Source: a virus. From it: a stretch of 40,500 nucleotides of DNA. Positions 1 to 39,193 of the stretch are shown piece by piece. Every line of letters begins with the position of its first letter. The first letter of the stretch is position 1. The stretch lies in the UHGV virus genome UHGV-0090882. The stretch is one strand, 5' to 3'. The notes beneath the pieces are model-generated. The model worked only from the letters and a program-made list of their open reading frames with translations. It was not told where the DNA came from and did not search any database. The translations under genes and the position numbers were made by a program.

Positions 1-46
1 ATGATCTTAAATGTCTTATTTTTCGTAATGTGTACAACAAGGAATA

Positions 47-565
47 GTGATGAAATTTAAAAAATGTTTTCTGCCTGTGGCAATTTTAGCGTCATTCACC
101 CTGGCAGGATGCCAGTCAAATGCTGACGACCATGCCGCCGATGTCTATCAAACCGATCAACTGAATACAAAGCAAGAAACTAAAACCGTTAATATTATCT
201 CCATTCTTCCCGCAAAAGTTGCCGTAGATAACTCACAAAATAAACGGAATGCGCAAGCCTTTGGCGCACTTATTGGCGCTGTCGCAGGCGGCGTTATCGG
301 CCATAACGTTGGATCTGGTAGTAACTCCGGAACAACGGCTGGTGCAGTTGGTGGCGGAGCTGTAGGCGCGGCAGCGGGTACTATGGTGAATGATAAAACC
401 TTAGTGGAAGGTGTCTCTTTAACTTATAAGGAAGGCACCAAAGTGTACACCTCCACCCAGGTGGGTAAAGAATGCCAGTTCACAACGGGTTTAGCCGTTG
501 TTATTACCACCACTTATAACGAAACGCGTATTCAGCCAAATACAAAATGTCCTGAAAAGAGCTAA
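47..565 (+). CDS. Lipoprotein with glycine-zipper segment (SlyB/PCP-like); host flank or bor-like moron
   Basis: Signal peptide with lipobox (LAGC), Gly/Ala-rich zipper GALIGAVAGGVIG...GGGAVGAAAG. Family assignment from motif only. Confidence 0.5.
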   Translation: MMKFKKCFLPVAILASFTLAGCQSNADDHAADVYQTDQLNTKQETKTVNIISILPAKVAVDNSQNKRNAQAFGALIGAVAGGVIGHNVGSGSNSGTTAGAVGGGAVGAAAGTMVNDKTLVEGVSLTYKEGTKVYTSTQVGKECQFTTGLAVVITTTYNETRIQPNTKCPEKS

Positions 566-580
566 CTATCAGGAGGACTC

Positions 581-1123
581 ATGAAGAAAGTTTTTCTTTG
601 CGCCGCCATATTAGCTGCTGTTAGTAGCCCGGCTTTCGCCTCTTCATTACAGGATCAACTCTCTGCGGTCGCAGAAGCTGAACAGCAAGGCAAAAATGAA
701 GAACAAAGGCAGCATGACGAATGGGTTGCGGAGCGCAACAGGGAAATCCAGCAAGAGAAGCAACGGCGCGCAAACGCTCAGGCCGCAGCGAATAAAAGAG
801 CGGCAGCAGCAGCAGCGGATAAAAAAGCTCGCCAGGATAAACGGGACGCCGAATTCACTGCGGATAAAAAGCGCGATCAAAGTTATGAAGATGAGCTGCG
901 CAACTTAGAGATTCAGAAGCAAAAACTGGCGCTGGCAAAAGAAGAAGCGCGCGTTAAGCGTGAGAACGAATTTATCGATCAGGAACTGAAACACAAAGCA
1001 GCGCAAACCGATGTTGTACAATCTGAAGCTGACGCTAACAGGAATATGACTGAAGGTGGTCGTGATTTGATGAAAAGCGTGGGTAAAGCAGAAGAGAATA
1101 AATCAGACAGTTGGTTTAATTAA
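581..1123 (+). CDS. Secreted, highly charged coiled-coil protein of unknown function
   Basis: Signal peptide MKKVFLCAAILAAVSSPAFA followed by K/E/R/A/Q-rich sequence; RBS AGGAGG upstream; stop followed by hairpin terminator. Confidence 0.45.
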   Translation: MKKVFLCAAILAAVSSPAFASSLQDQLSAVAEAEQQGKNEEQRQHDEWVAERNREIQQEKQRRANAQAAANKRAAAAAADKKARQDKRDAEFTADKKRDQSYEDELRNLEIQKQKLALAKEEARVKRENEFIDQELKHKAAQTDVVQSEADANRNMTEGGRDLMKSVGKAEENKSDSWFN

Positions 1124-1185
1124 TCGTCTTTCCACTACCAGGCCTGTAATTCGTGAGGATTATGGGCTTTTTAATTGCATAAAAA

Positions 1186-1216
1186 ACCCTCCAGTGGATG
1201 AACAGAGGGTTTTGTT
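1186..1216 (+). terminator. Rho-independent terminator after the 581..1123 gene
   Basis: Stem ACCCTC / GAGGGT followed by TTTTG; A-run on the 5' side, so it may act in both directions. Confidence 0.45.
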
Positions 1217-1398
1217 ACCAAAATATGCTGAAGCCTCGTACGAATAGAAAACCTCAGCATTTAGTGTTCGGGTTTATTCCCACTCAATTATTTACGATAA
1301 CCATAACCAATTGAGTGATAACATTTTTCCAAATCTCAATTTTTCCCGTACCGTTTTATATACCGTCACCGGAAATCAGTACCATGAAAAATGCCATG

Positions 1399-1881
1399 CT
1401 ATCTGGTCAAAGTGTCGTACTGTTTTTCGCAGACTCTTCCGGCTTCGGCTGCCCGGTCAGCATACTCTGCCAGTTGTCTGTTTCTCTCGAGAGATTTGCT
1501 GAGCACGTCGGCAAGCAAAACTCCGGTGTCTGCGGCTGACGACCCAGCGCCGACAATGGCGTTATACTGCCTGAGCTGCTCACGGATGGCAAAGAGTTGT
1601 TGCTGCAACCGGCCAGCGCTAGCGGCAGCATCAAGAGCATCATTGCGCGCCTGGTCGATCCTCTGCTGAGCTTCACGTTCATTGGTCACTTTCTCCTGTT
1701 CGTAGTACTGACGAACTTTGTCTTCTTCGGCTTTGCGGTCTTCTTCCGCCTGAGCATACCCGGCATCGTACTGGCGACTGCCGTGTATATTCCAGGCAAC
1801 CACTCCTGATATGACCAGAACAGCAAGCACTGCCACGATAAGAAACTGTTTCCAGTATGCTTTTACGAATGCCCAGATCAT
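1399..1881 (-). CDS. i-spanin (Rz-like): N-terminal TM anchor plus coiled coil
   Basis: N-terminal hydrophobic segment, charged coiled-coil body, last gene of lysis cassette, 4-nt overlap with the endolysin stop. Confidence 0.7.
1407..1682 (-). CDS. o-spanin (Rz1-like lipoprotein) embedded out of frame in the i-spanin gene
   Basis: Fully embedded in an alternative frame of 1399..1881; signal peptide with lipobox LAGC, Pro/Ser-rich mature part. True start may be the internal MM at about 1643. Confidence 0.6.
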   Translation of the reverse strand: MNVKLSRGSTRRAMMLLMLPLALAGCSNNSLPSVSSSGSITPLSALGRQPQTPEFCLPTCSANLSRETDNWQSMLTGQPKPEESAKNSTTL

Positions 1882-2507
1882 ACCGCCAGCACCTTACTGG
1901 CAGTGATGTACCGCGCTCGCCGGTCGTCGATGCCGTTCCGGCCACCATTGATAATCAGAGTTACACGTGCAATATCGCCGGTATACTTCATGCATCCTTT
2001 GCTGGCGAAGAACCACGCCGCGCTACGAGCCGCATATCCGTCCTGCGCCAGCAGTTCAGGGCTCTCCAGCAGGTCAACCTTCAGACCGTTTCCGCAATCA
2101 CGATAGTTATTCAAACCGGTAATCTGGATAAGTCCGCGCCCTCGGTAATTCCAGCCATCACCAGGGGCATTGTTCCCCATGCGTTTGCTGTATACCAGAT
2201 TTGCGATCGCGCGCTGGCGCTCAAGTGGCAATGGTGGTTCACCAGCACGGCGCCCCAGTGCATTAGCCTGCCCCTGAGTGAGACGCCCAGCCCGAACGAA
2301 GTTAGCCAGTCCGCTGACACTGTAGTTGAAATTCTCCTGCAACCTGGTGAAGCCCCCAGACTCATGCCCGACTTGAGCAATAAACATTGCCTGATCTTCT
2401 GCTTTGCTGATACCAAACTCTTTCATCGCAGAAGTTATATGCGAGAACCAGCGTGCGGCCAGTGCCTCGCTGATACCAGCAGCTCGCTGGAATTGTTTAA
2501 TCTCCAT
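1878..2507 (-). CDS. Endolysin, GH19 chitinase-like lysozyme
   Basis: Motifs [10 protein letters not shown] and [11 protein letters not shown] typical of GH19 endolysins. Start trimmed to ATG at 2507 (MEIKQFQ...). Confidence 0.7.
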
Positions 2508-2805
2508 GTTTAGACCTCGATATTTTGAAAATCTGAACAACGTTACCGCGCGTTTTAATAACCGCAGCCAGCATGACAGCGTTGATAATGACCTCAGATA
2601 AATCCACAGCCATTGGCGTACGTAACCAGATTGCATAGGCGACTCGAACAGGAATACTGGCCGCAGCAACAATCAGGAAATAAGCAAGCCATCCTCCCCA
2701 CCTTCGATGTTGAGAGCCGTTACGCCGGAATGTGACAACGCGAATTGCTATGCCAGTGCAAATAACTGCATTGGTGATAAGCAAAAAAAACTCATGCGTT
2801 ACCAT
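2497..2805 (-). CDS. Small membrane protein, holin/antiholin candidate
   Basis: About 3 hydrophobic helices, immediately upstream of the endolysin. Confidence 0.45.
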
Positions 2806-3196
2806 CGTCTTTTCTCCCCGGAATTAACTCGCGTGGATTATCGGAACGGTGATAGAGCCATATACCAATACGCACAGCGACAATTGCTGACACGAATGCG
2901 CCTGCAGAGAAAACAATCCCTTTTTCAAAAGAGTCCTGCGTGATGGTAGGGATCAGGCTGGCTATGCCGATAAGAATTGATGCTGCTGGTTTGTAAAAGA
3001 GAAGGCCGCAAAGAAAGCTGAGCATCGACAGGAGCACCCGGCGACGGATGGGGTACTCTACTGCAGAGGTAACAAAAATTACCGCCCCAGCCAAAGCCCC
3101 TAAAGCAACCTCCGGAGGGACACCTGCAATAACCGCAGCAAGAGAACCAAAACTAAGCAACTGATTTAATTGCTCACTTGTTACTTGAGCAGACAT
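2792..3196 (-). CDS. Membrane protein, holin candidate
   Basis: Several predicted TM helices; first gene of the lysis cassette. Confidence 0.45.
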   Translation of the reverse strand: MSAQVTSEQLNQLLSFGSLAAVIAGVPPEVALGALAGAVIFVTSAVEYPIRRRVLLSMLSFLCGLLFYKPAASILIGIASLIPTITQDSFEKGIVFSAGAFVSAIVAVRIGIWLYHRSDNPRELIPGRKDDGNA

Positions 3197-3476
3197 ACTT
3201 TCTCCTGTTTACTATCTATAAGCCAGTCAATTATTGATGACTAACCCCGCATAGTAAACCATATATGAATCATTATTGTTCCATATCATATATCTCAATA
3301 AAAGTACTAATGATTTTACAGAACGAGCCAGCAGAGTGGGGGCAGTTGTACAGGAACCATAGACTTAATTTTGTATTTAATAATGCTATGGTGTAATAAA
3401 CCTGAACATGTATTTAAAATACGTACTGATTCATGATAGAATTCAAAGATAACTTTTCACAAACTCCGTTTTTGAT

Positions 3477-3504
3477 ACCCGCAAAATATTGCGGGCTTTT
3501 TTTT
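3477..3504 (+). terminator. Plus-strand rho-independent terminator abutting the tailspike stop
   Basis: Stem CCCGCAA / TTGCGGG followed by C and T8. On the minus strand the hairpin is not followed by a U-run, so it is not the tailspike terminator. Confidence 0.4.
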
Positions 3505-6500
3505 AACGTTCTTCCAGAGACTGAATCCGCTCTTTTATCTTATCCATTTCTCTGCGCTGCCATGCTGCCTCGATATAGAATAAGAGATCAGGTCTGACCC
3601 CCCATCTAGATCCTGCTGGCGTTATTTCAACGCGCTCAATGATGTCTTCCATTACCATCACTGGATTATCATCCTCATCAACAATGATGCTCCCGTCATT
3701 ATCAGTCAGCGGCATTTCCCTTTGGCCAGTAATGACGTCATCATATACTGCGGGATAATCGTCATAGCAAAGAAAGGCATAGCGGCATGTTGTGCTTTCT
3801 TCTTCCATGAGTCCGTGAGAAATAAGAACATCACGAAGTTGCTGCGCGATTACACCATGATGTATCCTCGCCCCTTCTTCCCCCTTTATAGCGACAGCGT
3901 TCAGCCATTTATAAGCGATATACCTGACGTCACCCCAGGCATCCAGCAATGCTTCGTCAGGAGAGACCGGCTCTGTCTTTAATGTTCCGTCACTGGTAAC
4001 CACAGGATTGGAGCCAAGATAAACTGTCGAGAACCTGTTTCCCGGACCACCAAGAGCATTTACATTATCAAGATAAGGTTTAACATCTCCGTTCTCAAAA
4101 AGATGTTCGAGTGCGTTATATACCGCGCGACGTGGAGTACTGCTTCCGGAACCATGCAACGTTATCATTGCACCATCTGCTGAAGACGTTGTTTCACCGC
4201 CGCTAACGATTAATCTCTGAGCGGTAACATCATCAGACGGTACTTTCTTCGCAATAATGGCGTAATTACCCTCAAGTTTGACTTCCGCGCGAACTTGTCC
4301 TGATGTACCTGCATGGACAGTCAGTGACTGGACGGCAACATCATCTGTGAAATCAACGGGTACAGGAACCGTCCTCACGCCTGACGTCGACATAAAAGTA
4401 GGAAGCGTTCTGTTAGGAGTGGCTCCGTAGACAAAATCCCTTGAAACAAATTCTTCCTGTTTAATTTTCACCCTGAAACAATACAAATCAGCCGGGTGAC
4501 CATCGTGAACATAAGGATATTTTCTGTTGTTATCCCCTATGCTCCATGGGTTTAGAAAGTCTTCCCCACCGAAAATGTAGTACAGCCAGTTGTCTTTGAT
4601 ACAAACTGAACCAACACCAACCGCAGAGTTAACTATTCCGCCCTGATAAATCTGATCAGTAACATTAACCCACTCTACATTATCCAGACTCCACTCATTG
4701 ACGTTAACTCTGGTCATAAATGTTCTTGGATAATTTCCTGCATAACGGTTATCAGGTTCTCCTCCTTCCCACTCACCAAATGCGCGCTCACTGCCAAAAA
4801 TAATCAGCTCATCGCCAACTTTGGCAAAAGGAAGGTTTGAGTGATGAACATTATTTGGGAAGCGAAGAGAATTCCATGATGTACCTAAATCAGAGCTTCT
4901 GTGCAATGAACTACCGGGTTGAGTACTTAATGTCCCCCTGGTCGTCAGATACAGAATGCCATCATAATATTTTACACATGGCTCAGATGCATTCGCCTCA
5001 TATTCTGCAGGTATGCGTCTGCGAACAAAGCTACCAGGAGAACCGAAAGCATCAGAGAAATAGAGTATCCCAAGCTCGCGTGGACCAATATCACCATTAT
5101 GGTAGCCAACAGCAAAACTGTTATCGCTAATCGTCGCAAAACTGTGAATCTCAGTAACAGGAGTGCTTCCGTCAACAAAAGAAGGAATAGTTCCAAGACT
5201 GGTTTTTCTCCATGGTGACGAGTGAAATGATGTACCAAAACTCCAGTATCTACCCTCGTTATTCTGATCCACATCCTGGGTATTTTGCGTCGTAACTGTA
5301 AAAGTATTTTTATCAATAACAGTAGTCACCGTCATATTCCCGGTAACACCTGTAACACCAGAGTTTGAGAAGTTGACAAAATCACCAGCAAATAATCCGT
5401 GATCAGTAATGCGAATATAAGCGACTTGCTGATTTGCTGCTTTCGTTATACCACCATAAACGCGAAGGCTGCGACTCATTGGGCGATCCCACAACTCTGC
5501 AACCTGCAGTTTATTTCCGCTCACGGTCCGCGTCTCAATTACAGCAAAAAGGCGATTTCTGACAACCCCCATACTCATGCAGTGATAGTTAACTGTGGGA
5601 TAGTTTTCATGTAAATCTGTAAGCCATTCCGGCGTTGTCCAGGTCTTCCCGTCATCTCCTGAGCGAACCCATGCAACATGGAGGTTATTTACACCATGGC
5701 GGTCTCCAGCCATAAAAGGCGCATAGATGACATTGTCATATACAAACGTTTTATCCTGCGTCCAGGCGTTGTACCACGGTGTATCTGTAATTTTAAATAA
5801 CTCTCCCTGGATAAAATCTTCAGAAGCATAAAAAAGAGGCTGGCCCGGTATTCTCTCAAATAAAAAACGAGCATTTTTAAATCGACTGACATCCGGAAGA
5901 GTTGATACTTTAAAAGTAAGCCCTAATCCGTCAATTTTATAACCTGGAGATGAGGCTTCAAGGCACGCGCTTATTGCAGTGGAATCGTCATTTATACCAT
6001 CACCAACAGCTCCAAAATCTTTGGGGCTAATAGCATCACGCATTTTATCTTGGAACGTTCGGTACACAGCCCCAGAACCATACTGAATAAACCAACCAAA
6101 ACCACCAACAACCCCGGCGATTGCAGCATCGACATAATTACGCATTGAGCGATTATTTACAGCATCCTGCTCAAGTGATGGATCTGCAAGGTTAGAAATT
6201 CTGTTTTGCTTTGCATCGTAATATTTTGCAAGCAGAGAGGGCTTCATCAATGCACGTCTGAACCACCCAAAACATTGCTGGATCAGCATCGTCAGGTAGT
6301 CAAAGGCATCTTCATGCACTTCGGGGAAAAATTTTCCCTGATTGCGAAGGTCTGTCTCCTGCACTACATCAAGCACACGATCTATCGTAATTCGCCATCC
6401 AGTAGCAAGCGGAGACGGAAGAACCACAGAACCGCCACTATAAGTGCCCGCCCCAGTTACCGTATAACCGGTATCCAGAACCAATTCTGTTACGTTTCCG

Positions 6501-6622
6501 TTCAGGTCAGACACCTGAACAACCAGGTCTGATTTTCTGAAAATTCGAAAAGTATACGGAAACGATGTCGTAACGCCGTTACCGGTGTATTCGTTGTGGT
6601 CAACTTCGGTTGAGACCGTCAT
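3503..6622 (-). CDS. Tailspike: putative endo-N-acetylneuraminidase (endosialidase) with C-terminal intramolecular chaperone domain
   Basis: 1039 aa. N-terminal virion-attachment domain; two sialidase Asp-boxes (SGDDGKTW, SSDLGTSW); C-terminal region ...ARIHHGVIAQQLRDVL... resembling the self-cleaving chaperone of endosialidases/T5 fibres. Confidence 0.65.
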   Translation of the reverse strand: MTVSTEVDHNEYTGNGVTTSFPYTFRIFRKSDLVVQVSDLNGNVTELVLDTGYTVTGAGTYSGGSVVLPSPLATGWRITIDRVLDVVQETDLRNQGKFFPEVHEDAFDYLTMLIQQCFGWFRRALMKPSLLAKYYDAKQNRISNLADPSLEQDAVNNRSMRNYVDAAIAGVVGGFGWFIQYGSGAVYRTFQDKMRDAISPKDFGAVGDGINDDSTAISACLEASSPGYKIDGLGLTFKVSTLPDVSRFKNARFLFERIPGQPLFYASEDFIQGELFKITDTPWYNAWTQDKTFVYDNVIYAPFMAGDRHGVNNLHVAWVRSGDDGKTWTTPEWLTDLHENYPTVNYHCMSMGVVRNRLFAVIETRTVSGNKLQVAELWDRPMSRSLRVYGGITKAANQQVAYIRITDHGLFAGDFVNFSNSGVTGVTGNMTVTTVIDKNTFTVTTQNTQDVDQNNEGRYWSFGTSFHSSPWRKTSLGTIPSFVDGSTPVTEIHSFATISDNSFAVGYHNGDIGPRELGILYFSDAFGSPGSFVRRRIPAEYEANASEPCVKYYDGILYLTTRGTLSTQPGSSLHRSSDLGTSWNSLRFPNNVHHSNLPFAKVGDELIIFGSERAFGEWEGGEPDNRYAGNYPRTFMTRVNVNEWSLDNVEWVNVTDQIYQGGIVNSAVGVGSVCIKDNWLYYIFGGEDFLNPWSIGDNNRKYPYVHDGHPADLYCFRVKIKQEEFVSRDFVYGATPNRTLPTFMSTSGVRTVPVPVDFTDDVAVQSLTVHAGTSGQVRAEVKLEGNYAIIAKKVPSDDVTAQRLIVSGGETTSSADGAMITLHGSGSSTPRRAVYNALEHLFENGDVKPYLDNVNALGGPGNRFSTVYLGSNPVVTSDGTLKTEPVSPDEALLDAWGDVRYIAYKWLNAVAIKGEEGARIHHGVIAQQLRDVLISHGLMEEESTTCRYAFLCYDDYPAVYDDVITGQREMPLTDNDGSIIVDEDDNPVMVMEDIIERVEITPAGSRWGVRPDLLFYIEAAWQRREMDKIKERIQSLEER

Positions 6623-6725
6623 GTTAAATCTCCAGATAGTCGCAGCACCCGTTGCGCCGCATATCTGGTTATTCTATTACCTGGAAAACCACATATGGAT
6701 AGAAAGGCTGTAAATACGAATAGAT

Positions 6726-6742
6726 ATTACCTTTCAGGTAAT
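6726..6742. promoter_or_regulatory. Operator-like 17-bp palindrome ATTACCTTTCAGGTAAT (site 1)
   Basis: Perfect inverted repeat TTACC-N5-GGTAA upstream of the antirepressor promoter. Confidence 0.5.
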
Positions 6743-6778
6743 TTGCAAAACGTGCTGGATAGCAAACAAATTATTTGC

Positions 6779-6798
6779 TACTGTATAAATATACAGTT
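6779..6798 (+). promoter_or_regulatory. LexA (SOS) box TACTGTATAAATATACAGTT
   Basis: Exact CTGT-N8-ACAG with AT-rich spacer, about 20 nt upstream of the start of 6818..7075. Confidence 0.7.
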
Positions 6799-6817
6799 AT
6801 TGCATGGAGAAGATAAG

Positions 6818-7075
6818 ATGCAGCAGTATCACTATCCACTGGAAGACGGATTTACCGAAAGGATTCACACGCCGGGAGGCGTCAGGTCACTGGTGGAGGG
6901 ATCGCACTTGATGAAATTACTCCGGGATCTCGATAAGGATGGATTTAATGTCGATGGCCCACTTGCCGAACTGACTGCACTGATTAACTACGTCACCAGC
7001 TCACAGATGTCTATGCAGGATCTGCAAACACATCTCGACTATTGTGCCGAACAATTACGAAAACAAACCAGATAA
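6818..7075 (+). CDS. Small SOS-controlled protein, antirepressor candidate
   Basis: 85 aa from ATG 6818 (GGAG 9 nt upstream). Residues LMKLLRDLDKDGFNVDGPLAELTALINYV...DLQTHLDYCAEQ are paralogous to the C-terminus of the Bro-N protein at 7391..8101. The track start at 6695 lies upstream of the LexA box. Confidence 0.55.
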   Translation: MQQYHYPLEDGFTERIHTPGGVRSLVEGSHLMKLLRDLDKDGFNVDGPLAELTALINYVTSSQMSMQDLQTHLDYCAEQLRKQTR

Positions 7076-7105
7076 GGTTTGCAATTACCAAATGGAGTGC
7101 TTATA

Positions 7106-7122
7106 TTTACCTTTGCGGTAAA
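7106..7122. promoter_or_regulatory. Operator-like palindrome TTTACCTTTGCGGTAAA (site 2)
   Basis: Inverted repeat inside a larger inverted repeat (GGAGTGC ... GCACTCC). Confidence 0.45.
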
Positions 7123-7212
7123 TTTACATCGCACTCCTCTTGTGCCATAGTAATCGGGCACTGGCAAAATCCAGTGCCGGGATTGGCGTCCCGAGTTACT
7201 AAGTGGCGCATA

Positions 7213-7234
7213 CCACGCCAGACGTGGTTTTTTT
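7213..7234 (+). terminator. Putative weak rho-independent terminator
   Basis: Stem CCACG / CGTGG followed by T7. Confidence 0.35.
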
Positions 7235-7390
7235 ATGCGTTAAGCACAGCTATATCCGAATTATGGTGGGCTGGGCAGGGGTCCGAAAGGACGCCGGTAC
7301 CACTTAGGCCGGTACGCCAACCTTGTCCAGTTCACCACCAGTAATTGGCGTTGCGGTGGTGATTAAAATCACTAAGTGGAGATAACCACC

Positions 7391-8101
7391 ATGGCTAATG
7401 CTCAAACTGCCATCTTCAAATTTGAATCTGTTAACCCTATCCGTTCCATCATTATCGATGGCCAACCATGGTTTGTAGCCCAAGACGTTTGTAGTGCGCT
7501 GCGTATCCAAAACGTCACCCAAGCACTTGAAAAACTGGATGATGATGAAAGGTCTATGTTCAACATAGGGCATGAACATCGTGCAATTTTTGACAGCCGA
7601 GTAAAAGAGATCAACATCATCTCCGAGTCAGGCCTCTACACACTGATCCTCCGCTGCCGCGATGCGGTGACACCAGGCACTACCCCCTACCGCTTTCGTA
7701 AATGGGTTACAGGTGAGGTTCTTCCTCAGATCCGCCGCACCGGAAGTTACATTAAAAACTCGCTCCCGCAGGAAGAACGCATAAAGATGGTTGCCGACCA
7801 GGTAGCCAGCGCCACAGCATCAGCAGTGATGCAGGCAATGAAGGTAGAGAACAAAACCTACAGCGCCCCACTGAAGCCCGGCTACCGCAGCCTGATTCAT
7901 TCGCCGTCTGGTGTTCTCGGCCTGACGGAGAACTCACTGCTGATGAATCTGCTGAACCAGTTACAGGAAGACGGGCACGACGTATCGGGCGCGGCGGCGG
8001 AACTGACCACCATGTTCTGCTACATCGTCGGTGTGAGTAAATGCCTGCGTGATATCCAGACCCACGCGGAATACATCAACGACAAGGCAGGGGTCTTCTG
8101 A
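7391..8101 (+). CDS. Antirepressor, Bro-N domain protein
   Basis: N-terminus FKFESVNPIRSIIIDGQPWFVAQDVCSAL...ISESGLYTLILR is Bro-N-like; C-terminal domain paralogous to 6818..7075. ATG at 7391. Confidence 0.6.
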   Translation: MANAQTAIFKFESVNPIRSIIIDGQPWFVAQDVCSALRIQNVTQALEKLDDDERSMFNIGHEHRAIFDSRVKEINIISESGLYTLILRCRDAVTPGTTPYRFRKWVTGEVLPQIRRTGSYIKNSLPQEERIKMVADQVASATASAVMQAMKVENKTYSAPLKPGYRSLIHSPSGVLGLTENSLLMNLLNQLQEDGHDVSGAAAELTTMFCYIVGVSKCLRDIQTHAEYINDKAGVF

Positions 8102-8172
8102 CGGGCGGCGGCACAGGGATGTGCCTTTAAATAATTCTGTACGATTGCAGACAGGGGGGTGAATAGAGTACT

Positions 8173-8189
8173 ATTACCTTACGGGTGAT
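8173..8189. promoter_or_regulatory. Operator-like palindrome ATTACCTTACGGGTGAT (site 3)
   Basis: One mismatch to the palindrome; left 14 nt identical to site 11. Confidence 0.4.
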
Positions 8190-8317
8190 CCATAGCGATT
8201 AGGCACCGATACAGGAGGAGCCCACATGAGAAAATTTGACGAGTACGAAGGCGTTTAACATTCGGATAGTTTAATGACGGGGCCATTAGGCCCCGTTTTC
8301 ATGTCTGGAGACAGTTT

Positions 8318-8857
8318 GTGTTAAGTGAAGAAATGCAATTTGCCATGGCTGTGGCTCAAATCGTAAGTGCAGTCGCGGTTTCGCTTGGCTTGTTCATAGC
8401 TATCGCTACTATTATTTATAATGTAAATACAGCGAGAAAAGTACACACTTCAGTATTCCTTGGTGAAAGCAGGTTTGATGTAGATTATAAGAAAGGCCTA
8501 TCTACTATGCGCCGCATTCACGAATCGAACAAATCATTCCGCTCTTATATGTATCCAAGCAATGGGCAGGCTGATCTTACGGATGAAGAAAAGATAGAGA
8601 AGAGAGAAATAATTTACTGTCTAGGTTTCTACGAACGCATGGCTGTGAGCGTGAAGCGGAAAACTTATGATGAGACCATGATTAAGGAAGTATTTTACAG
8701 CTCCGTTGTAAATAACTATCAGATTGCGCTACCTCTTATACAAGCTATTAGAGAAAAAGAAAACATAAACACATATTTTAAAGAATATGAATGGTTGGCC
8801 ACACGATGGAAGGATTGTCCATTGAAGGATAAATCCCCGTGGTACAAGTTTTGGTAA
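8318..8857 (+). CDS. AT-rich moron: membrane-anchored protein of unknown function (candidate superinfection-exclusion/abortive-infection effector)
   Basis: Opposite strand to flanking virion genes; one N-terminal TM helix then a ~140-aa soluble domain; own terminator; visibly lower GC than neighbours. ATG at 8333 may be the true start. Confidence 0.6.
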   Translation: MLSEEMQFAMAVAQIVSAVAVSLGLFIAIATIIYNVNTARKVHTSVFLGESRFDVDYKKGLSTMRRIHESNKSFRSYMYPSNGQADLTDEEKIEKREIIYCLGFYERMAVSVKRKTYDETMIKEVFYSSVVNNYQIALPLIQAIREKENINTYFKEYEWLATRWKDCPLKDKSPWYKFW

Positions 8858-8880
8858 GCCCGCGACGCGGGCTTTTTTGT
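8856..8880 (+). terminator. Rho-independent terminator of the moron gene
   Basis: Stem GCCCGC / GCGGGC followed by T6, directly after the stop. Confidence 0.6.
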
Positions 8881-8918
8881 GTCTGCGGATTCCCGCCCGG
8901 GTGGCGGTGGCATTCGTT

Positions 8919-8942
8919 AAAAACAAGGCCGCGAAAGCGGCC
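8919..8942 (-). terminator. Rho-independent terminator of the minus-strand virion operon
   Basis: Stem GGCCGC-gaaa-GCGGCC with an A-run on the plus strand 5' side (U-run in the minus transcript). Confidence 0.5.
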
Positions 8943-8943
8943 T

Positions 8944-8955
8944 GTGACATGTCAC
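8944..8955. repeat. 12-bp perfect palindrome GTGACATGTCAC (copy 1 of 3)
   Basis: Overlaps the stop of 8952..9248 and abuts a terminator; identical copies at 26506 and 28771. Confidence 0.5.
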
Positions 8956-9248
8956 GTTCCTTTTCTGAATGATAGCCGTTCGAAAAATGATGACATTCCA
9001 CCGCAGACAATAGCAAAGATGATCCCACCAAAGAAGAGAAGGCCAGCCTGCCACCACTCCCACCGCCATACATCCACAGCACCAACCATACCAACAATCG
9101 CTCCAACAAATGGAATATAGCTCACGATGAAAGCAATGGGGGCTGCAATTATCCAGTGCAATCCCCACCATGATTCAAGCCCAGCCATAATTGCTGCCAA
9201 CTGAAAAAGGCCAACGACGATATAAACAATGAATCCTATCGCTTGCAT
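8952..9248 (-). CDS. Small polytopic membrane protein of unknown function
   Basis: 98 aa, about 3 hydrophobic helices; last gene of the injection-protein operon. Confidence 0.45.
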   Translation of the reverse strand: MQAIGFIVYIVVGLFQLAAIMAGLESWWGLHWIIAAPIAFIVSYIPFVGAIVGMVGAVDVWRWEWWQAGLLFFGGIIFAIVCGGMSSFFERLSFRKGT

Positions 9249-9261
9249 GTAGTCACCTATT

Positions 9262-9431
9262 TACCCAGTAAAAATCAGAGGCCTCCCCTCAATAAGGCTT
9301 GCAACAAGAACTATTCCCTGCACAACAAAGATGAACCAGCAAATAGCTTGAGTCTGAGGGTTAAGAAAATATTTGTAGCGGTCAATAAATAACAACCCAC
9401 CAGAAATTATCACACTCAAAATAATTAAAAA
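9262..9431 (-). CDS. Possible very small membrane protein (about 56 aa, GTG start); not in ORF track
   Basis: Open frame found by reading the reverse strand between 9248 and 9444; almost entirely hydrophobic. Confidence 0.25.
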
Positions 9432-9443
9432 CACAACACTTCC

Positions 9444-11918
9444 TTATTGCGGAGTGACATCCTGAGGTCGCCACCAGTATGTCTGATTAAACTCTTTCTT
9501 CGAACGTTGCTCCATTTTACGCAAATAGCCTGGTGAAAAATACTCCTGCATCTGGTTAAAGATCATATGATCGAGAGCCGCCTTTAAGTACCAGAGATTC
9601 GCACCTGGCATCAAACCTTTCCCCAGCTTCACCAGATCACCACCAGTCTGCTCACTCTTCCCTTCCACAGCATTTAACGGTATGCCCTGAGCAATCTTCA
9701 CTACGTCATCAACCAGACCAGCTACCGGGCCAAGCATCGACGCCAGCGCGCCGCTTCCGTACCTAGTGTGATCTGACAATAAAAAGTCACCGTAAAGGCC
9801 AAGGCCACCACCTTTCAGTAGAGCACCAAGCCAGAATTTTGCGGCACCTTCTCCTGTCATCTCTCGAGGATTACGACCAGACGCAAGGTCGTTAAGTTGC
9901 TGCGACAAAGCGCCAAGAATGGTCGTACTGGCAATAAACGTCGCAATATATGCCGCACGCCCACCAGCAGACGGCATACCCATAGCGCGTGACCAGTGAC
10001 GCATAACAACCGAGATAGGGAACGATTTAAACAGGAAAACACTTCTCGTTAATTCACCTTTCCATGTTCCACGCTGAATACCAGAACCGGTTATCAGTTG
10101 CTCACGTGCTCCCGGTGTAATAACAGCCATATCAACTTCTTCAGTTACGGCACCGAGCAGTTTACGCATTGCCTCAAATTTCACTCGTTCAGGCTCACCA
10201 AGATGTTTAACTGCTGAATCAGGGATACGCATAATGCTTTCCGGTGTCAGCATCGTATTATTACCGTTCCCCCAGTCCTCCTGTTGCGCCAGCTTCCATA
10301 CGCTCCAGTCTGTGTCAGTAATCCCTTTGCTTTTCAGGATACGAAAATCAGAGTCATCGAGGCTACGAAGGTCTGGTGTCCGTGACACTACTTCTCCCAG
10401 GCTTCCCATCATGGTTACGCCATAGGCGCGCTTGTGCGCATCTGACCATGCTGTAAGCCCACTGGCACGCATTACGGCCGTTGCCGCCCAACGAGACACT
10501 GACGGCCCCATATTATCCATCGCCCAGCGGTTAACGCTGCCAAGTAGAGATTCCATCGCCAGACCAGCGCGGCGCGCCCGCGCAAGTTCTGTACGGTTCG
10601 TTGGGTCCATAGCTTCAAGCTGGTTGCGGAATAACTGGTTCATTGGAAGGTTGGTAACCTTCGCAGACAGATACATGGTTCCAAGATCAGAGAACGATGA
10701 CAGCAACGCGGATCCGAGTCTGCTGGCAACCAGCCAGTTGCGGATATTGTCAGACCATCGCGCGATGTGCGGATTCGCTACAGGCTGTGTCTTTCCAGAA
10801 ATAAAGTTGTACAGATTCTCTGTGTTGTTCGCCAGCCGCTCGACTTTACCGGTTTTACTCGGGTTAGCTGTTGCCGTTTCTGCCTTAACCTGATCAAGAA
10901 GGGAGCGGAAAACATGATCGGGGTTTGGGCCATATGTTTCCACCAGTGCAATATCTTTACTGATACCTTCCAGGTGACCGACCATGATTTCCCATAGAGA
11001 GCGATCGCCATAAAGTTGCTGATATTGCAGATAGGAATCTGCATCTTTGAAATGTATCTGTCGTGATGCATTACCACGGTTAGCACGTGCGCCGGAAATT
11101 CGCATTCCGGTATCAGTAAGCTTATTCAGCCCACCAGTAGCGATCGTGTTATAAGCCTCTCCAAGAAATGCAGACAACTCGGCATCGTTCATCAGTTGTC
11201 CATCGGCTCGGGTATAATATTTGCGATCCAGCTTACCTATAACATCGCTAACCCATTTATCTTTTGATACCGCCCCAACCTTTTCCATAGAATGATGTTG
11301 AGGGATCCCCCAGTTTTCGAGATAGCCAATGTCCCCACCAGCATCATTAAACCGGCGGCGGAGTAGATCTGTCACTTCTCTCCACGCCTTAGCACCTTTT
11401 CTTGCTTTAGCATTGCCAGTATTTTGCCCTCGCATTTCATATACCAGGTCACGCACGCCCGCTTCATCTTCAAACAGGCCAAAAAAGCGAGGATCAACTG
11501 CTTCGAATGCCTCCTGCAATTGACTCAATGCATAATCACGAGTGGCTTTTGTTCTGGACTCAACAGAGAGGAAATTCGATTTACCGTCTGCATTAAAAGC
11601 AATAGTACGGTTAAGAGCGCCAAGTTTCCCATCAGCCCCTTGATAGCTATTGATAAATTTATCCAATCTCTGACGTGCGGCTATAGTAAGAGCCACACGA
11701 CGTTTCTTTAATGCCGCTTCTCGCTGTAATTCTTCAGATGCCAATTGTGCTGCACGATACAGCCGCTCTGACTCGGAAAGTTGTCGCCACGACATAGGGT
11801 CATCACGAGCAATGGAGCGCATATTGCGATAAATGCGGTCTTCAATGTTCTGTATTTCTCGCGCCGTTAACGTGCGCTGCGCCGCCTGCTGGACCGCTTG
11901 TATACATTCCTGTCTCAT
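9444..11918 (-). CDS. Large internal virion / DNA-injection protein
   Basis: 824 aa in the block of large proteins between the tail tubular genes and the tailspike, matching the position of T7-type internal core proteins. Confidence 0.5.
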   Translation of the reverse strand: MRQECIQAVQQAAQRTLTAREIQNIEDRIYRNMRSIARDDPMSWRQLSESERLYRAAQLASEELQREAALKKRRVALTIAARQRLDKFINSYQGADGKLGALNRTIAFNADGKSNFLSVESRTKATRDYALSQLQEAFEAVDPRFFGLFEDEAGVRDLVYEMRGQNTGNAKARKGAKAWREVTDLLRRRFNDAGGDIGYLENWGIPQHHSMEKVGAVSKDKWVSDVIGKLDRKYYTRADGQLMNDAELSAFLGEAYNTIATGGLNKLTDTGMRISGARANRGNASRQIHFKDADSYLQYQQLYGDRSLWEIMVGHLEGISKDIALVETYGPNPDHVFRSLLDQVKAETATANPSKTGKVERLANNTENLYNFISGKTQPVANPHIARWSDNIRNWLVASRLGSALLSSFSDLGTMYLSAKVTNLPMNQLFRNQLEAMDPTNRTELARARRAGLAMESLLGSVNRWAMDNMGPSVSRWAATAVMRASGLTAWSDAHKRAYGVTMMGSLGEVVSRTPDLRSLDDSDFRILKSKGITDTDWSVWKLAQQEDWGNGNNTMLTPESIMRIPDSAVKHLGEPERVKFEAMRKLLGAVTEEVDMAVITPGAREQLITGSGIQRGTWKGELTRSVFLFKSFPISVVMRHWSRAMGMPSAGGRAAYIATFIASTTILGALSQQLNDLASGRNPREMTGEGAAKFWLGALLKGGGLGLYGDFLLSDHTRYGSGALASMLGPVAGLVDDVVKIAQGIPLNAVEGKSEQTGGDLVKLGKGLMPGANLWYLKAALDHMIFNQMQEYFSPGYLRKMEQRSKKEFNQTYWWRPQDVTPQ

Positions 11919-11923
11919 TTAAT

Positions 11924-13726
11924 TTAACCTCTCAAGAAACACGCCACAGCGACATCAAACAGGCTGGAATCCTGTATTGCCTGCTCACTTTCCCTGTTCG
12001 TTTCATCCAGTACTTCACGCGCACTGCGCGATTGTGGATTACCATCATCATCCAGCACGGTGATTATCATGTCAGGTGATTCAAGCAGCGAGTCTTCAGC
12101 TATGCGCAGATCAATATCTCCTGCCTGATCTGACATCATTTTTTGTTCTGTCTGTTGCAATATCTTACCGGGCTCAAAAGGAGCTACTTCGTCTGGCGTC
12201 CTGACCTCTGCTGTTTTATAGAATGAAACAGCCTGAGCATTAAGTTCACTTTCTGCCTGCTGTCGCCGTGCCAGTTCTGCTCGAGCTTCAAAAAACTGAC
12301 CGCCAGGCTCATGCGGTGCCAACGCGTTACGGGAAAATTCCAAGCGTTCTTGTGCCTGCCGGATTCGTTGGTCAATATCGCGAAGTCTGGCCTGTTTATC
12401 TGATCGAGCACGAGATAAAGCCTTACCGCTACCGGTTGGCTCTTCTGCAAGAATTTGTGCGCGCTGTTCAGTGAGATTTTCAATAATTCGTTGGCTATTA
12501 GCGATTTCAGACTGGTAAACCTGTCTATCGCCACGCGGCAAAAGCTGCGCGGCCTGTTCTTCAAGCAACCGATTTTCTATAGCGCGCGCCGTTACTCCAT
12601 CATCTACAGATGACAGAGCCTCATTAACTGCCTGAGACAGCAGACTCTTGCGCCCAGGAATTTCACTGAAAGATGCAGACTCAACAATGCTGGCAACGTC
12701 TACAGGTCTCCCCTGGCTAACATCAGACATGGCTTTTCGCAGAGCCTGAATGTGCGAATTACGCGAAAGCACGTTGATCGGAACGCCGGGAGCAATATCA
12801 ATTTCAGCATGATGAGCGGCATTCGCCGCCAGTGCAGCATCGATATCAACTGGTGCAAAATTTGGTGCGCTTGTAGACTCGCCGCGAGAGTTCATAAATC
12901 TGCCGACACCACCAAACGCCACCCCAAGAACAGCATCAATAGCAATTGCCTGTCGATCCAACACATCATACTGGTTAGCCATTTCGCTATAGCCACCATC
13001 ACGAAGCGTTTTTGCAGTAAGCCCACGCTGTGCCATACCGAACGCAATATTTGTACCTGCGGCATAGGCAATATCTGGCGTTGCACGTACTGCTGTTGCT
13101 GCGGCGCGTCGCACTGAACTTTCACCCGTCCGCGCAAGCTGGGCCGCCACACCTTCCGCCAGCGCACCACCAGCACGTAACCCGAGGCTCATAGGGATCA
13201 GTGTTCCGGCACCAGCAGTAATACCCTGCACTAATCCCGCTTCCTGCGCCGTCCTGAAATCAACACCCTGAGCGGACAGGCGCTCAAATTCAGAGAATCC
13301 CTGAAGAGAGGTAACTGCGGCTGCGCCACCAATCGGCCCTGCTAATGCTGAACCGACAACAGCCTGTCCGCCCATATCGAACAACCCATAAAGAACCTGC
13401 CCGGCGGTTCCGGTTGTCGCGGCATCAGGCGTCAACCGCTTAACCTGCTGCTCTGCTAGTTTTCTCTGCTCGGCAATGTATGAAACTGAAGTATCATTGA
13501 ACGAGGTGTTTTCGTTAACAAACTGAGCAATCGGGGATACGATTTTATCCATTCCTGCCCATAGCAACTGGTCTGGCTTTGCCACCAGCCCGGAGTACAA
13601 ACCAGACAATGCCGCTCCTACAGCATTGTCGAAAAAACCAACATCGCTGTTAAAGCCCGCTGGATTTGATGCTGCTTCGTCAAGCTGCTGATTCTGGTTT
13701 ACTGGATTAAGGCCAAAGTAACTCAT
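11924..13726 (-). CDS. Internal virion / injection protein
   Basis: 600 aa, Ala/Gly-rich N-terminus, coiled-coil segments; position in the core-protein block. Confidence 0.45.
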   Translation of the reverse strand: MSYFGLNPVNQNQQLDEAASNPAGFNSDVGFFDNAVGAALSGLYSGLVAKPDQLLWAGMDKIVSPIAQFVNENTSFNDTSVSYIAEQRKLAEQQVKRLTPDAATTGTAGQVLYGLFDMGGQAVVGSALAGPIGGAAAVTSLQGFSEFERLSAQGVDFRTAQEAGLVQGITAGAGTLIPMSLGLRAGGALAEGVAAQLARTGESSVRRAAATAVRATPDIAYAAGTNIAFGMAQRGLTAKTLRDGGYSEMANQYDVLDRQAIAIDAVLGVAFGGVGRFMNSRGESTSAPNFAPVDIDAALAANAAHHAEIDIAPGVPINVLSRNSHIQALRKAMSDVSQGRPVDVASIVESASFSEIPGRKSLLSQAVNEALSSVDDGVTARAIENRLLEEQAAQLLPRGDRQVYQSEIANSQRIIENLTEQRAQILAEEPTGSGKALSRARSDKQARLRDIDQRIRQAQERLEFSRNALAPHEPGGQFFEARAELARRQQAESELNAQAVSFYKTAEVRTPDEVAPFEPGKILQQTEQKMMSDQAGDIDLRIAEDSLLESPDMIITVLDDDGNPQSRSAREVLDETNRESEQAIQDSSLFDVAVACFLRG

Positions 13727-25849: not shown

Positions 25850-25926
25850 GTGGCATTAGCTCAGTTGGACAGAGCAACCGCCTTCTAAGCGGTTGGTCGC
25901 AGGTTCGAATCCTGCATGCCACGCCA
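25850..25926 (+). tRNA. tRNA-Arg (anticodon UCU), phage-encoded
   Basis: Full cloverleaf readable by hand: acceptor GTGGCAT/ATGCCAC, D-stem GCTC/GAGC, anticodon stem ACCGC/GCGGT with loop CTTCTAA, T-arm GCAGG-TTCGAAT-CCTGC, 3' CCA encoded. Confidence 0.9.
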
Positions 25927-28782: not shown

Positions 28783-29120
28783 ACTATTAATTTCGTTTCA
28801 TGCCAGCCTTTAGTCACCCAGCATTGCGAGTCACCATCACACGGGCATGAATTCACAGGAACTCTCTCGCCGCACTTACCGCAACGTTTTCTGCTGATCG
28901 ATTTTATACGCCCGTGCACGCGTGCATCATCCTGGCGGATCAGTAACGCTATATACTCACCAAATTCGTAAGGCGCACGCCCGGGGCGACGCGTGGCACA
29001 GTTACGCTCCAGCATTTCAATTTCCTGAGCATCAAGCACAATTTCCAGCTTACGCACACCAGATGCAGCTTGTCTGGCTCTCTGAGCGGCTTTGCGCTCT
29101 GCTGCTGATTTAGCCATCAA
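28779..29120 (-). CDS. Zinc-ribbon protein immediately upstream of terminase (late-regulator candidate)
   Basis: 113 aa, basic N-terminus, C-terminal CGKCG...CPCDG...C cysteine cluster. Confidence 0.4.
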   Translation of the reverse strand: MMAKSAAERKAAQRARQAASGVRKLEIVLDAQEIEMLERNCATRRPGRAPYEFGEYIALLIRQDDARVHGRIKSISRKRCGKCGERVPVNSCPCDGDSQCWVTKGWHETKLIV

Positions 29121-29391
29121 TATTCACCTTTATCGCGAACACCTTTACCGGTTTATCTCCGAAGTGCGGATGTGTGATTGTCTTGATTTCATACCCTTCA
29201 TACGGGACGTCTATTCTGCGACTGGAGTCGTCGCGCTTCGGATATCCCTTTGTGATAATCAGGCGGTCATATTCCCGGAACATGATTCGCTTATTCCAGT
29301 AGTCATTACACAAGCGATACTCTTCCGTTTTCTCCCCGCGAATCATGGCATCGAAGTATTCACCTTTGACGGCAAGTTGCAGGTTAGCCAC
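29110..29391 (-). CDS. Hypothetical phage protein
   Basis: 93 aa, ORF track only. Confidence 0.35.
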   Translation of the reverse strand: MANLQLAVKGEYFDAMIRGEKTEEYRLCNDYWNKRIMFREYDRLIITKGYPKRDDSSRRIDVPYEGYEIKTITHPHFGDKPVKVFAIKVNIDG

Positions 29392-29671
29392 GACCTTCCT
29401 CCTTTGGCTTGTGAATTTGTATCGTCATGCCGCTTTGAGTGGTGACTACAACGACAGAACCAGGCTGAAGACTGTTAAGATTGAATGCTTCGTAAAACGA
29501 AGCCAAGGCCAGCGCTTTTTTATTCTTTCGGTTCCACCAACGCCATCCATTGCTACAGGCTACACTGACAATCCACTGTCCACTCCTGTAAGCCATATAA
29601 AACCAGATGAGCAAAACCTGAATGAATGCTATCCAGTCAATAATCGTATATTTCGCGAAGGAGACCATCAA
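29384..29671 (-). CDS. Hypothetical small protein with hydrophobic N-terminal half
   Basis: 95 aa, ORF track only. Confidence 0.3.
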   Translation of the reverse strand: MMVSFAKYTIIDWIAFIQVLLIWFYMAYRSGQWIVSVACSNGWRWWNRKNKKALALASFYEAFNLNSLQPGSVVVVTTQSGMTIQIHKPKEEGRG

Positions 29672-30246
29672 TTAACCTCCTGCGGCGGTTCCGGTAGAGG
29701 CATCCAGTACAAGGCGTTCCCTAACCACGATAAAGTGCCGTCGCTCAACTCCACGTATTCCCCTTGTACCTGTCCTGCCATATACTCGCCGTGCTTTGAA
29801 TAAATTAAAATCCAATCATCTTGAGCGGGCATTCGCTCACTACAGCTTATCCAACCATCCGGAGTTACCGGATAGTTGCCCGACAGCTCGTTCAACTTGT
29901 AAGTTTGGCTTACAGGTTCGGCTTCCAGTTCTGCAATGCGCTTCTCTGCAGCTTCCAGCTCAACGCGCAGCTTCCCTACCGTTAGCGCAATTTCCTCGTT
30001 CTCCTGGTCGCGGCGTTTGATGTATTGCTGGTTTCTTTCCCGTTCATCCAGCAGCGCCAGGACGGTTTCTGGTCCGGTCAGAAATTTGAAGGCGTTGAGC
30101 GCATCAATATCCACACCGTAATCCTTAAGTTCCTGTTCACTTAACAAATCATCATCAACTGGCAACATTAACAGGCGTTCCATTGCCGGAATTGCACGTT
30201 CTGCCGCCTCACGCAGTGCCTGATAGTCAATTGTCATTCTCGCCAT
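29668..30246 (-). CDS. Ea22-like protein with C-terminal DUF551-like domain
   Basis: Coiled-coil N-terminal half and C-terminus ending ...LSWLGNALYWMPLPEPP, recalled as DUF551. Confidence 0.5.
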   Translation of the reverse strand: MARMTIDYQALREAAERAIPAMERLLMLPVDDDLLSEQELKDYGVDIDALNAFKFLTGPETVLALLDERERNQQYIKRRDQENEEIALTVGKLRVELEAAEKRIAELEAEPVSQTYKLNELSGNYPVTPDGWISCSERMPAQDDWILIYSKHGEYMAGQVQGEYVELSDGTLSWLGNALYWMPLPEPPQEVN

Positions 30247-33544: not shown

Positions 33545-33559
33545 GATTAATCTCCGCTA

Positions 33560-33760: not shown

Positions 33761-33810
33761 GGTAAGCCCTGTTATTAGTATTGGGATTACGGTTATTTTG
33801 TGCTGACACA

Positions 33811-33840
33811 AAAAAAAAGATCAACCAGATTTGGTTTTTT
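33811..33840. terminator. Bidirectional intrinsic terminator between cro-like gene and replication genes
   Basis: A8 - AACCAGATTTGGTT hairpin - T6; a U-run follows the hairpin in either orientation. Confidence 0.45.
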
Positions 33841-39191: not shown

Positions 39192-39193
39192 AA

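Follow-up and report, generated by a model that had tools for sequence, protein, structure and literature searches.

Tailspike Gene, Domain Layout, and Active Site

The stretch of DNA analyzed here (the window, 40,500 nt, UHGV virus genome UHGV-0090882) carries a complete tailspike gene. Its ORF is intact and exactly fills positions 3503–6622 of the minus strand; the original prediction gave this interval without a strand. The start codon is ATG, with GGAG read 7 nt upstream in the sequence, and no in-frame start was found ahead of this ATG. The precursor of 1039 aa has a computed mass of about 115.6 kDa. The gene and its domains are arranged as follows.

3503–6622 (−): whole tailspike gene, 1039 aa and stop codon (ORF list and translation)
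6011–6622 (−): N-terminal virion-binding adaptor, aa 1–204, of the Uetakevirus (epsilon15-like) tailspike type
5810–6010 (−): endosialidase N-terminal extension, aa 205–271 (Pfam PF12218, E 6e-32)
4460–5809 (−): six-bladed beta-propeller catalytic domain, aa 272–721 (Pfam PF12217, E 1.4e-233)
5228–5476 (−): beta-barrel inserted in the propeller, aa 383–465 (Pfam PF12195, E 3.2e-46)
3995–4459 (−): stalk (tailspike) domain, aa 722–876 (Pfam PF12219, E 8.4e-78)
3506–3994 (−): C-terminal intramolecular chaperone, aa 877–1039, about 18.7 kDa (PF13884 and 3GW6)

All four Pfam endosialidase domains are found together with Peptidase_S74, all five far above threshold, and the PF12217 match covers the full length of the Pfam model. 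In the PDB, endoNF (1V0E/3GVL) matches aa 205–876 with an E-value of 0. The best similarity is to endosialidases, not to another kind of depolymerase, as both the PF12217 and the 1V0E/3GVL matches indicate. Peptidase_S74 (PF13884) is matched at aa 877–937 (E 1.7e-10), C-terminally and directly after the stalk, and the solved endoNF chaperone (3GW6) matches aa 757–1038 (E 1.3e-93), in agreement with the proposal of a C-terminal chaperone of the endosialidase type.

Two canonical sialidase Asp-boxes had also been proposed. Both were found and counted as exact S-x-D-x-G-x-T-W (the second reads Ser at the Thr position), while about 0.01 such motif per protein of this size is expected by composition. 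The Asp-boxes and the residues aligned with the active site of K1F gp17 (endoNF) are located as follows.

5639–5662 (−): Asp-box 1, SGDDGKTW, aa 321–328 (motif search)
4874–4897 (−): Asp-box 2, SSDLGTSW, aa 576–583 (motif search)
5696–5698 (−): His309, corresponding to K1F His350 (alignment)
4982–4984 (−): Glu547, corresponding to the catalytic Glu581 of K1F (alignment)
4937–4939 (−): Arg562, corresponding to K1F Arg596 (alignment)
4784–4786 (−): Arg613, corresponding to K1F Arg647 (alignment)

The K1F residue numbers were verified on the K1F gp17 translation, and the active-site roles of endoNF Glu581, Arg596, Arg647, and His350 are those described in the endoNF literature. Asp-box 1 is invariant in an alignment of the tailspike, K1F, and SiaK1 of prophage CUS-3. 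In the stalk, the polysialic acid (polySia)-binding residues R837 and S848 of K1F are kept as R803 and S814, and Q853 is replaced by Met819, as is the case in CUS-3.

The cleavage dyad S877/K882 aligns with S911/K916 of K1F; the sequences around the cleavage site (slash) are NPVVT/SDGTLKTEP in the tailspike and NPIVT/SNGERKTEP in K1F. The chaperone domain is predicted to be released by a cut on the N-terminal side of Ser877, which would act together with Lys882, giving products of 97.0 and 18.7 kDa, and the stalk is predicted to become the C-terminus of a mature protein of aa 1–876 (about 97.0 kDa).

In endoNF (1V0E, 3GVL, 3GW6), the domains follow one another as in the tailspike, starting with the N-terminal extension and ending with the chaperone, at an identity of about 62% by tblastn or 64.7% over aa 234–1029 by alignment. 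All catalytic and cleavage residues and most of the polySia-binding residues of K1F gp17 are kept, but it lacks a 7-residue insertion of the tailspike, FVDGSTP (aa 482–488). Neither of the two outcomes named beforehand as refuting the prediction, a best match to a non-sialidase depolymerase or catalytic residues missing from the alignment, came about. With counterparts here to all K1F active-site residues, the Ser-Lys dyad, and the domains, the prediction of a K1 polysialic-acid endosialidase with a self-cleaving folding domain is supported at the level of sequence.

By analogy with the enzymes of K1F and CUS-3, the C-terminal domain would assist three tailspike chains in assembling, after which the Ser877-Lys882 dyad would remove this domain by cutting before Ser877. 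The mature trimer of about 97-kDa subunits would then bind alpha-2,8-polysialic acid, and Glu547, Arg562, and Arg613 would form the site cleaving it. Cleavage would allow the phage to tunnel across the K1 capsule to the cell surface, and the K1 capsule would therefore set the host range.

Mosaic Origin of the Gene

The N- and C-terminal parts of the tailspike have different relatives. Its adaptor is shared with Uetakevirus-type tailspikes: gene nt 1–582 is 99.3% identical at the nucleotide level to the “eliminase” gene of phage EC.W1-9, and aa 1–166 is 68–70% identical to the tailspike of the Uetakevirus SPC32H and to the “eliminase” of Salmonella virus PAT1. When HEMP4 is included, the adaptors of SPC32H, EC.W1-9, PAT1, and HEMP4 show 68–93% aa identity over aa 1–166/203. 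The Dpo31/Dpo36 tailspike in the PDB also matches the adaptor (aa 1–210, E 1.7e-35). The C-terminal parts of the SPC32H and PAT1 proteins are unlike that of the tailspike; the post-adaptor parts of this group differ from it and are annotated not as endosialidases but as “eliminase” in EC.W1-9 and PAT1 and simply as tailspike in SPC32H. Where related adaptors occur in E. coli prophages, the gene annotation is GH28-related or tail fiber.

Most of the remaining part is held in common with the P22-like prophage CUS-3 (Lederbergvirus).

3532–5924 (−): block common to CUS-3 siaK1, gene nt 699–3091, 99.6% nucleotide identity (CP000711)

This block contains 11–13 differences in 2393 nt. At the protein level, identity to CUS-3 rises from 48% at aa 205–233 to 99.1% at aa 234–1029; the point of crossover to the CUS-3 allele is aa 233/234, inside the N-terminal extension. 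The propeller is identical in 450 of 450 aa to that of CUS-3 and 70% identical to that of K1F. CUS-3 SiaK1 also has the same chaperone domain and cleavage dyad, while its last ~10 residues differ and its N-terminus is of the P22 gp9 head-binding type, about 25% identical to the tailspike over the aligned part. The CUS-3 record carries endo-alpha-sialidase activity with the evidence code IDA (direct assay; PMID 16689790); with an identical propeller, the tailspike is inferred to have the same activity.

Between the two parts, other Uetakevirus-type tail genes cease to match at nt ~615–648, and CUS-3-type genes begin to match at nt 699. In the E. coli records listed by spread sampling, the only matches to gene nt ~649–698 lie in full-length carriers (n = 72), and the source of aa ~217–233 was not found there. 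Judged from these matches, the tailspike gene is the product of recombination between a Uetakevirus adaptor and an endosialidase block also present in the P22-like prophage CUS-3.

Integration, Relatives, and Hosts

The window is collinear with phage vB_EcoP_ZX5, whose taxonomy line is Uetakevirus, with 96–99.9% identity over most of its length. ORF7 of ZX5 (QTH80017.1; MW722083) is the same 3120-nt gene with three aa differences (R141K, L150F, and S368R); nucleotide identity of the tailspike gene to ORF7 and to its copies in 72 complete E. coli genomes is 99.7%. The same three-domain layout has been described for ORF7 by Li et al. (2022; PMC9782041). The tailspike is therefore real but ordinary, a near-identical gene having been described already in ZX5 and in CUS-3. 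The neighbors of the tailspike gene, the lysis cassette, and the phage backbone of ZX5 are all as in the window, while some accessory segments differ: window positions 8127–8881, 29118–30885, 32478–33818, and 38539–39210 are without a ZX5 match. The DUF4760 gene at 8318–8857 has no counterpart in ZX5, and the accessory ORFs at 8318–8857, 8952–9248, and 6695–7075 gave no PADLOC match to anti-phage defense families.

The similarity to ZX5 begins at position 1276, where the prophage joins the chromosome.

1276–1288: prophage-chromosome junction, core ATTCCCACTCAAT; left, chromosome (yfgH, yfgI); right, prophage

The attP region of ZX5 reads ...AATCATTCCCACTCAATTATTT, and by direct reading the junction core has 13 nt in common with the ZX5 att. 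The att core published for ZX5 is the 17-nt sequence attgagtgggaatgatt (PMC9782041), which is absent from the window at up to two mismatches. From the collinearity and this junction, the element is a temperate epsilon15-like Uetakevirus prophage beside yfgI.

The four segments unmatched in ZX5, together with the end of the window before the second att site, may raise the thought that the intact tailspike gene sits in a defective prophage, never assembled into particles and kept as a fossil or for another use by the host. This is improbable: the genes for virion, lysis, and integrase have open reading frames throughout and keep the ZX5 order, only three residues separate the tailspike from the ZX5 protein, and ZX5 itself is viable, reaching about 10^7 PFU/mL by spontaneous release from its lysogens (PMC9782041). 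ZX5 forms plaques and was isolated on the host YO1, O87:H52:K1 (PMC9782041).

The original prediction tied the prophage to K1-capsulated enterobacteria. In E. coli this tie holds. The full-length tailspike gene has 72 carriers among the 5426 complete E. coli genomes, and neuS (polysialyltransferase) is present in 59 of the 60 carriers checked vs. roughly 6% of complete E. coli genomes (adding neuS to the query gave about 325 extra places across the 5426 genomes). The sole neuS-negative one among the 60 is GPEC128-620; APEC O1 has a complete kpsFEDUCS-neu-kpsTM cluster. The chromosome joined to the present copy, to which the tie may extend, is that of another species: an exact-protein look-up assigns the flank genes to Escherichia marmotae, not to E. 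coli, in which ZX5 has been studied. Contig 141 of run ERR3451000 is 100% identical to window positions 1–12622. A search of representative genomes with the PdeF fragment returned none above 91.5% DNA identity, the representatives of E. marmotae and E. fergusonii not being among those returned.

This host leaves some room for a substrate other than plain K1, such as a K92-type polymer with alternating alpha-2,8/2,9 linkages, an O-acetylated form, or another E. marmotae capsule, which would place the host range outside K1: in one survey, only one E. marmotae strain had the full K1 gene set (PMC10457355), and the prophage is without a neuO-type O-acetyltransferase repeat. Against this stand the propeller, 100% identical to that of the K1-specific phage CUS-3, the neuS-positive E. 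coli carriers, and the K1 strain on which ZX5 was isolated, so that such a substrate is improbable.

Identity between the copy in the E. marmotae chromosome and an E. coli copy is 99.95% over 11.3 kb, against only 89% for their chromosomal flanks. With somewhat better than even confidence, we suggest that a temperate K1-endosialidase Uetakevirus moves between E. marmotae and E. coli, its host range being set by the polysialic-acid capsule and not by the species. The enzyme biology has already been established for CUS-3, K1F, and ZX5, and the window therefore adds nothing new on the enzyme. Its modest contribution is the presence of the same phage in an E. marmotae chromosome, a hint at passage of K1-specific temperate phages from one Escherichia species to another. 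In E. coli of the neonatal-meningitis and avian-pathogenic types, the K1 capsule, the receptor, is a major virulence factor. Because the tailspike would fix the receptor as the K1 capsule, the prophage may serve as a K1-lineage marker and readily supply an enzyme that strips the capsule, and, if the cross-species reading is true, it would also mark K1-capsulated lineages of E. marmotae.

Virion Type and Gene Neighborhood

Other genes of the window agree with a Uetakevirus. The major capsid protein belongs to the epsilon15 GP7 family (Pfam PF20911, E 2e-149), an integrase is encoded at 39194–40450, and portal and tail proteins are also encoded. Repressor, antirepressor, and RecT/RecE genes are present, as assigned by collinearity with ZX5. 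Neither the large ORFs scanned nor the annotation of ZX5 include an RNA polymerase.

A T7-like virion had been proposed originally, and this part of the proposal is refuted. The echoes of T7 are two: the portal belongs to Pfam PF12236 (head-to-tail connecting protein), the family that includes the T7 gp8 connector, and the adaptor has a Phage_T7_tail (PF03906) match at aa 135–161 alone, with 18.2 bits and E 0.002, below the cut-off of 25.2. These echoes, and the catalytic and chaperone domains common to K1F gp17, might suggest a K1F-like phage of the T7 type (Autographiviridae), a reading that can be dismissed as next to impossible given its identity to ZX5, the GP7-family capsid, the integrase, repressor, RecT/RecE, and antirepressor genes, the lack of an RNA polymerase gene in the places scanned, and an adaptor whose identity to the N-terminus of K1F gp17 is just 21%. 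K1F, unlike the present prophage, is lytic and T7-like and has an adaptor of the T7 gp17 type.

A prophage of the CUS-3 type (P22-like, Lederbergvirus) was also considered and rejected: the N-termini are unrelated at their low identity, the virion genes are of the ZX5 type, and no AAGACTC repeat arrays are found in the window. CUS-3 has another virion type, integrates at argW, and carries neuO adjoining its tailspike gene, none of which applies here; a neuO-like phase-variable O-acetyltransferase was not found beside the tailspike. Very probably, then, the tailspike is a receptor-destroying GH58-type endosialidase with an S74 chaperone, belonging to a temperate epsilon15-like podovirus (Uetakevirus) and formed by recombination of a Uetakevirus adaptor with the CUS-3 block.

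Downstream of the tailspike gene on the same strand, a lysis cassette occupies 1399–3196 (−), its gene order matching that of ZX5 and APEC O1.

2792–3196 and 2497–2805 (−): two holin-family genes (Pfam)
about 1878–2507 (−): GH19 endolysin (Pfam)
1399–1881 (−): DUF2514 protein (Pfam)

The tailspike genes of SPC32H, EC.W1-9, PAT1, and HEMP4 likewise precede a lysis cassette. The spacer between the tailspike and the cassette (3197–3502, 306 nt) is AT-rich and non-coding, and contains one hairpin adjoining the stop codon.

The endosialidase tailspike

The tailspike gene lies on the minus strand (window 3503–6622) and is a single unbroken 1039-codon ORF in the ORF listing; its ATG is preceded by GGAG, and no in-frame start is found earlier, after the upstream stops. 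The two sialidase Asp-boxes of the original prediction are both exact, SGDDGKTW at aa 321–328 (window 5639–5662) and SSDLGTSW at aa 576–583 (window 4874–4897), against approximately 0.01 such motifs expected from the protein composition. Pfam finds the complete endosialidase domain set in the protein:

aa 205–271, End_N_terminal (E 6e-32)
aa 272–721, End_beta_propel (E 1.4e-233)
aa 383–465, End_beta_barrel, nested (E 3.2e-46)
aa 722–876, End_tail_spike (E 8.4e-78)
aa 877–937, Peptidase_S74 (E 1.7e-10)

Among solved structures, the best matches are K1F endoNF (1V0E and 3GVL, E = 0 over aa 205–876), 4HIZ from the endosialidase of phi92, and 3GW6, the C-terminal chaperone of endoNF, at aa 757–1038 (E 1.3e-93); the last of these also bears out the predicted C-terminal chaperone. 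The catalytic residues were checked in an alignment of the protein with K1F gp17 (endoNF) and the siaK1 product of prophage CUS-3, with the K1F numbering verified on the K1F translation; 6/6 compared positions are identical.

Positions identical in the alignment
K1F His350, window H309
K1F Glu581, window E547
K1F Arg596, window R562
K1F Arg647, window R613
K1F Ser911, window S877
K1F Lys916, window K882

We take the functional roles of these six K1F residues to be those of the endoNF literature. Polysialic acid-binding stalk residues R837 and S848 of K1F are kept as well, whereas Q853 is replaced by Met, as it is in CUS-3. Cleavage before Ser877 would produce a mature chain and a released domain with predicted sizes of 97.0 and 18.7 kDa, respectively.

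Both the enzyme and the type of phage that carries it are already known. The tail gene of the temperate Escherichia phage vB_EcoP_ZX5 (ZX5; MW722083) is 99.7% identical to the whole gene, and three substitutions separate the encoded proteins. ZX5 ORF7 has been described as beginning with a part that resembles the T7 tail fibre, continuing with an endosialidase region and ending in an endosialidase chaperone, and the isolation host, YO1, is O87:H52:K1 (PMC9782041). RefSeq names the E. coli copies [quoted passage not shown] The main interpretation of the original prediction, an endosialidase tailspike, is correct, except for its label of a T7-like virion (see below).

A 306-nt AT-rich non-coding spacer (window 3197–3502) separates the gene from the first holin gene, while the spacer at the same place in phage EC.W1-9 contains two small ORFs. 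The tailspike stop codon is abutted by a GC-rich hairpin (CCCGCAA...TTGCGGG, window 3478–3495), which is unlike a terminator for this gene because its T-run is on the plus strand.

Mosaic origin and possible exchange of the gene

From nt 699 to 3091, the gene is 99.6% identical to siaK1 of CUS-3, with 11–13 differences in 2393 nt; the proteins are identical at 450/450 positions of the propeller and 99.1% identical over aa 234–1029. Direct-assay evidence for endo-alpha-sialidase activity is annotated in the CUS-3 record. On the other side, nt 1–582 are 99.3% identical to the EC.W1-9 “eliminase” tail gene, and aa 1–166 share 68–70% identity with the Uetakevirus SPC32H tailspike and the PAT1 “eliminase,” whose parts after the N-terminal virion-binding adaptor are, unlike that of the window protein, not endosialidases. 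The crossover with the CUS-3 allele is at aa 233/234, within the endosialidase N-terminal extension. In a sample spread over the matches in E. coli, only the 72 genomes with the full-length gene cover nt ~649–698. Judging from these alignments, the tailspike gene is a mosaic of known parts. Such module exchange has been described in K1 phages (PMC5380687).

The genome of APEC O1 has two different, unrelated endosialidase prophages: a CUS-3-like one of the P22 type at argW, with an acetyltransferase alongside (L010 6697–9642), and one of the Uetakevirus type adjoining yfgI (L002 8001–11120). Their endosialidase modules are near-identical, and the 12–13 fixed differences kept in 2393 nt give no sign of ongoing conversion. 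Two matching places are also seen in many other carriers.

An identical 1039-aa tailspike and lysis cassette are found behind at least three upstream virion gene sets in comparison loci L016, L017, L019 and L020. These sets (locus positions 1–5800) encode proteins of 600 and 824 aa, as in the window, 1129 and 283 aa, or 849 and 186 aa. The yfgI flank is present at L016, L017 and L019, and L020 ends before reaching it. The association of one tailspike-lysis unit with several upstream sets suggests that this end is shared among phage backbones.

Chromosomal flank and K1 hosts

Window 1–1275, chromosomal flank
Window 50–565, yfgH
Window 581–1123, yfgI

The yfgH-yfgI segment is 91% identical to that of APEC O1. 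A Logan contig from ERR3451000, 100% identical to window 1–12622, extends the flank, and over 3.6 kb the extended flank (L014 11340–15120) shares 89.0% identity with E. coli. This flank allele is apparently absent from complete E. coli genomes, since the best match in 5114 records reaches only 90–95% identity. Of the species representatives returned, that of E. ruysiae is the nearest (91.5%), with those of E. marmotae and E. fergusonii outside the ones returned; in NCBI and UniRef, proteins exactly matching YfgI and YfgH bear the label Escherichia marmotae. By its sequence, the flank is that of E. marmotae, not E. coli. The same prophage, with 99.95% identity across 11.3 kb, is also found beside a flank typical of E. 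coli (L015). The kps/neu genes of the E. marmotae host fall outside the window; in one survey, only one E. marmotae strain had the K1 genes in full (PMC10457355). The E. marmotae host is the only mildly new point of our analysis.

In E. coli, 72/5426 complete genomes carry the full-length gene, some with O1:K1:H7, O7:K1 or APEC O18 in the strain name and one isolated from cerebrospinal fluid. In APEC O1, the K1 locus was located in full (kpsFEDUCS-neuS...neuB-kpsTM). When the carrier search was rerun with the polysialyltransferase gene neuS added to the query and extra matching places were counted, exactly one appeared in each of 59/60 listed carriers, compared with ~325 across all genomes (roughly 6% of genomes), indicating a very strong association and upholding, in E. 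coli, the predicted tie to K1 hosts. The sole exception among the 60, E. coli GPEC128-620 (NZ_CM160072.1), gave no extra neuS match; its K1 capsule may be missing or disrupted.

Prophage type and contents

ZX5, which is collinear with most of window 1276–40500 (96–99.9% identity, order conserved), is assigned to Uetakevirus, whose members are temperate podoviruses of the epsilon15 type. The window encodes epsilon15-type GP7 capsid, portal, protease and tail proteins, together with three large internal virion proteins, terminase and integrase, and an RNA polymerase was found neither among its large ORFs nor in the annotation of ZX5. On the collinearity with ZX5, the GP7 capsid, the integrase and this negative result, the T7-like label was rejected, and the prophage is epsilon15-like instead. 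Two features recall T7: the portal is assigned to PF12236, a family that includes the T7 gp8 connector, and the adaptor has a match, sub-threshold only, to Phage_T7_tail. Downstream of the tailspike, the lysis cassette consists of two holin-family genes, a GH19 endolysin and a DUF2514 protein. Other features are as follows:

Window 1276–1288, left prophage junction, 13 nt in common with the ZX5 att core
Window 7158–7234 and 7259–7342, plus strand, two Rfam RNA matches (isrK, C4 antisense)
Window 8318–8857, plus strand, DUF4760 ORF
Window 8952–9248, minus strand, small membrane-like ORF
Window 25850–25926, plus strand, tRNA-Arg (anticodon TCT), within the prophage

As estimated from ZX5 coordinates, the window stops ~140 nt before the other prophage junction. 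The accessory segment at 8127–9443 is mostly missing from ZX5, and other carriers have different genes there; its ORFs at 8318–8857 and 8952–9248 match no PADLOC defence family. The matches to the isrK Hfq-binding RNA (67 bits) and the C4 antisense RNA (66 bits), both above the gathering score, are directly upstream of a Bro-N antirepressor ORF (window 7376–8101), an arrangement that looks like P1/P7-style antisense control of the antirepressor. The tRNA-Arg gene sits between the portal and terminase genes, on the strand opposite to theirs.
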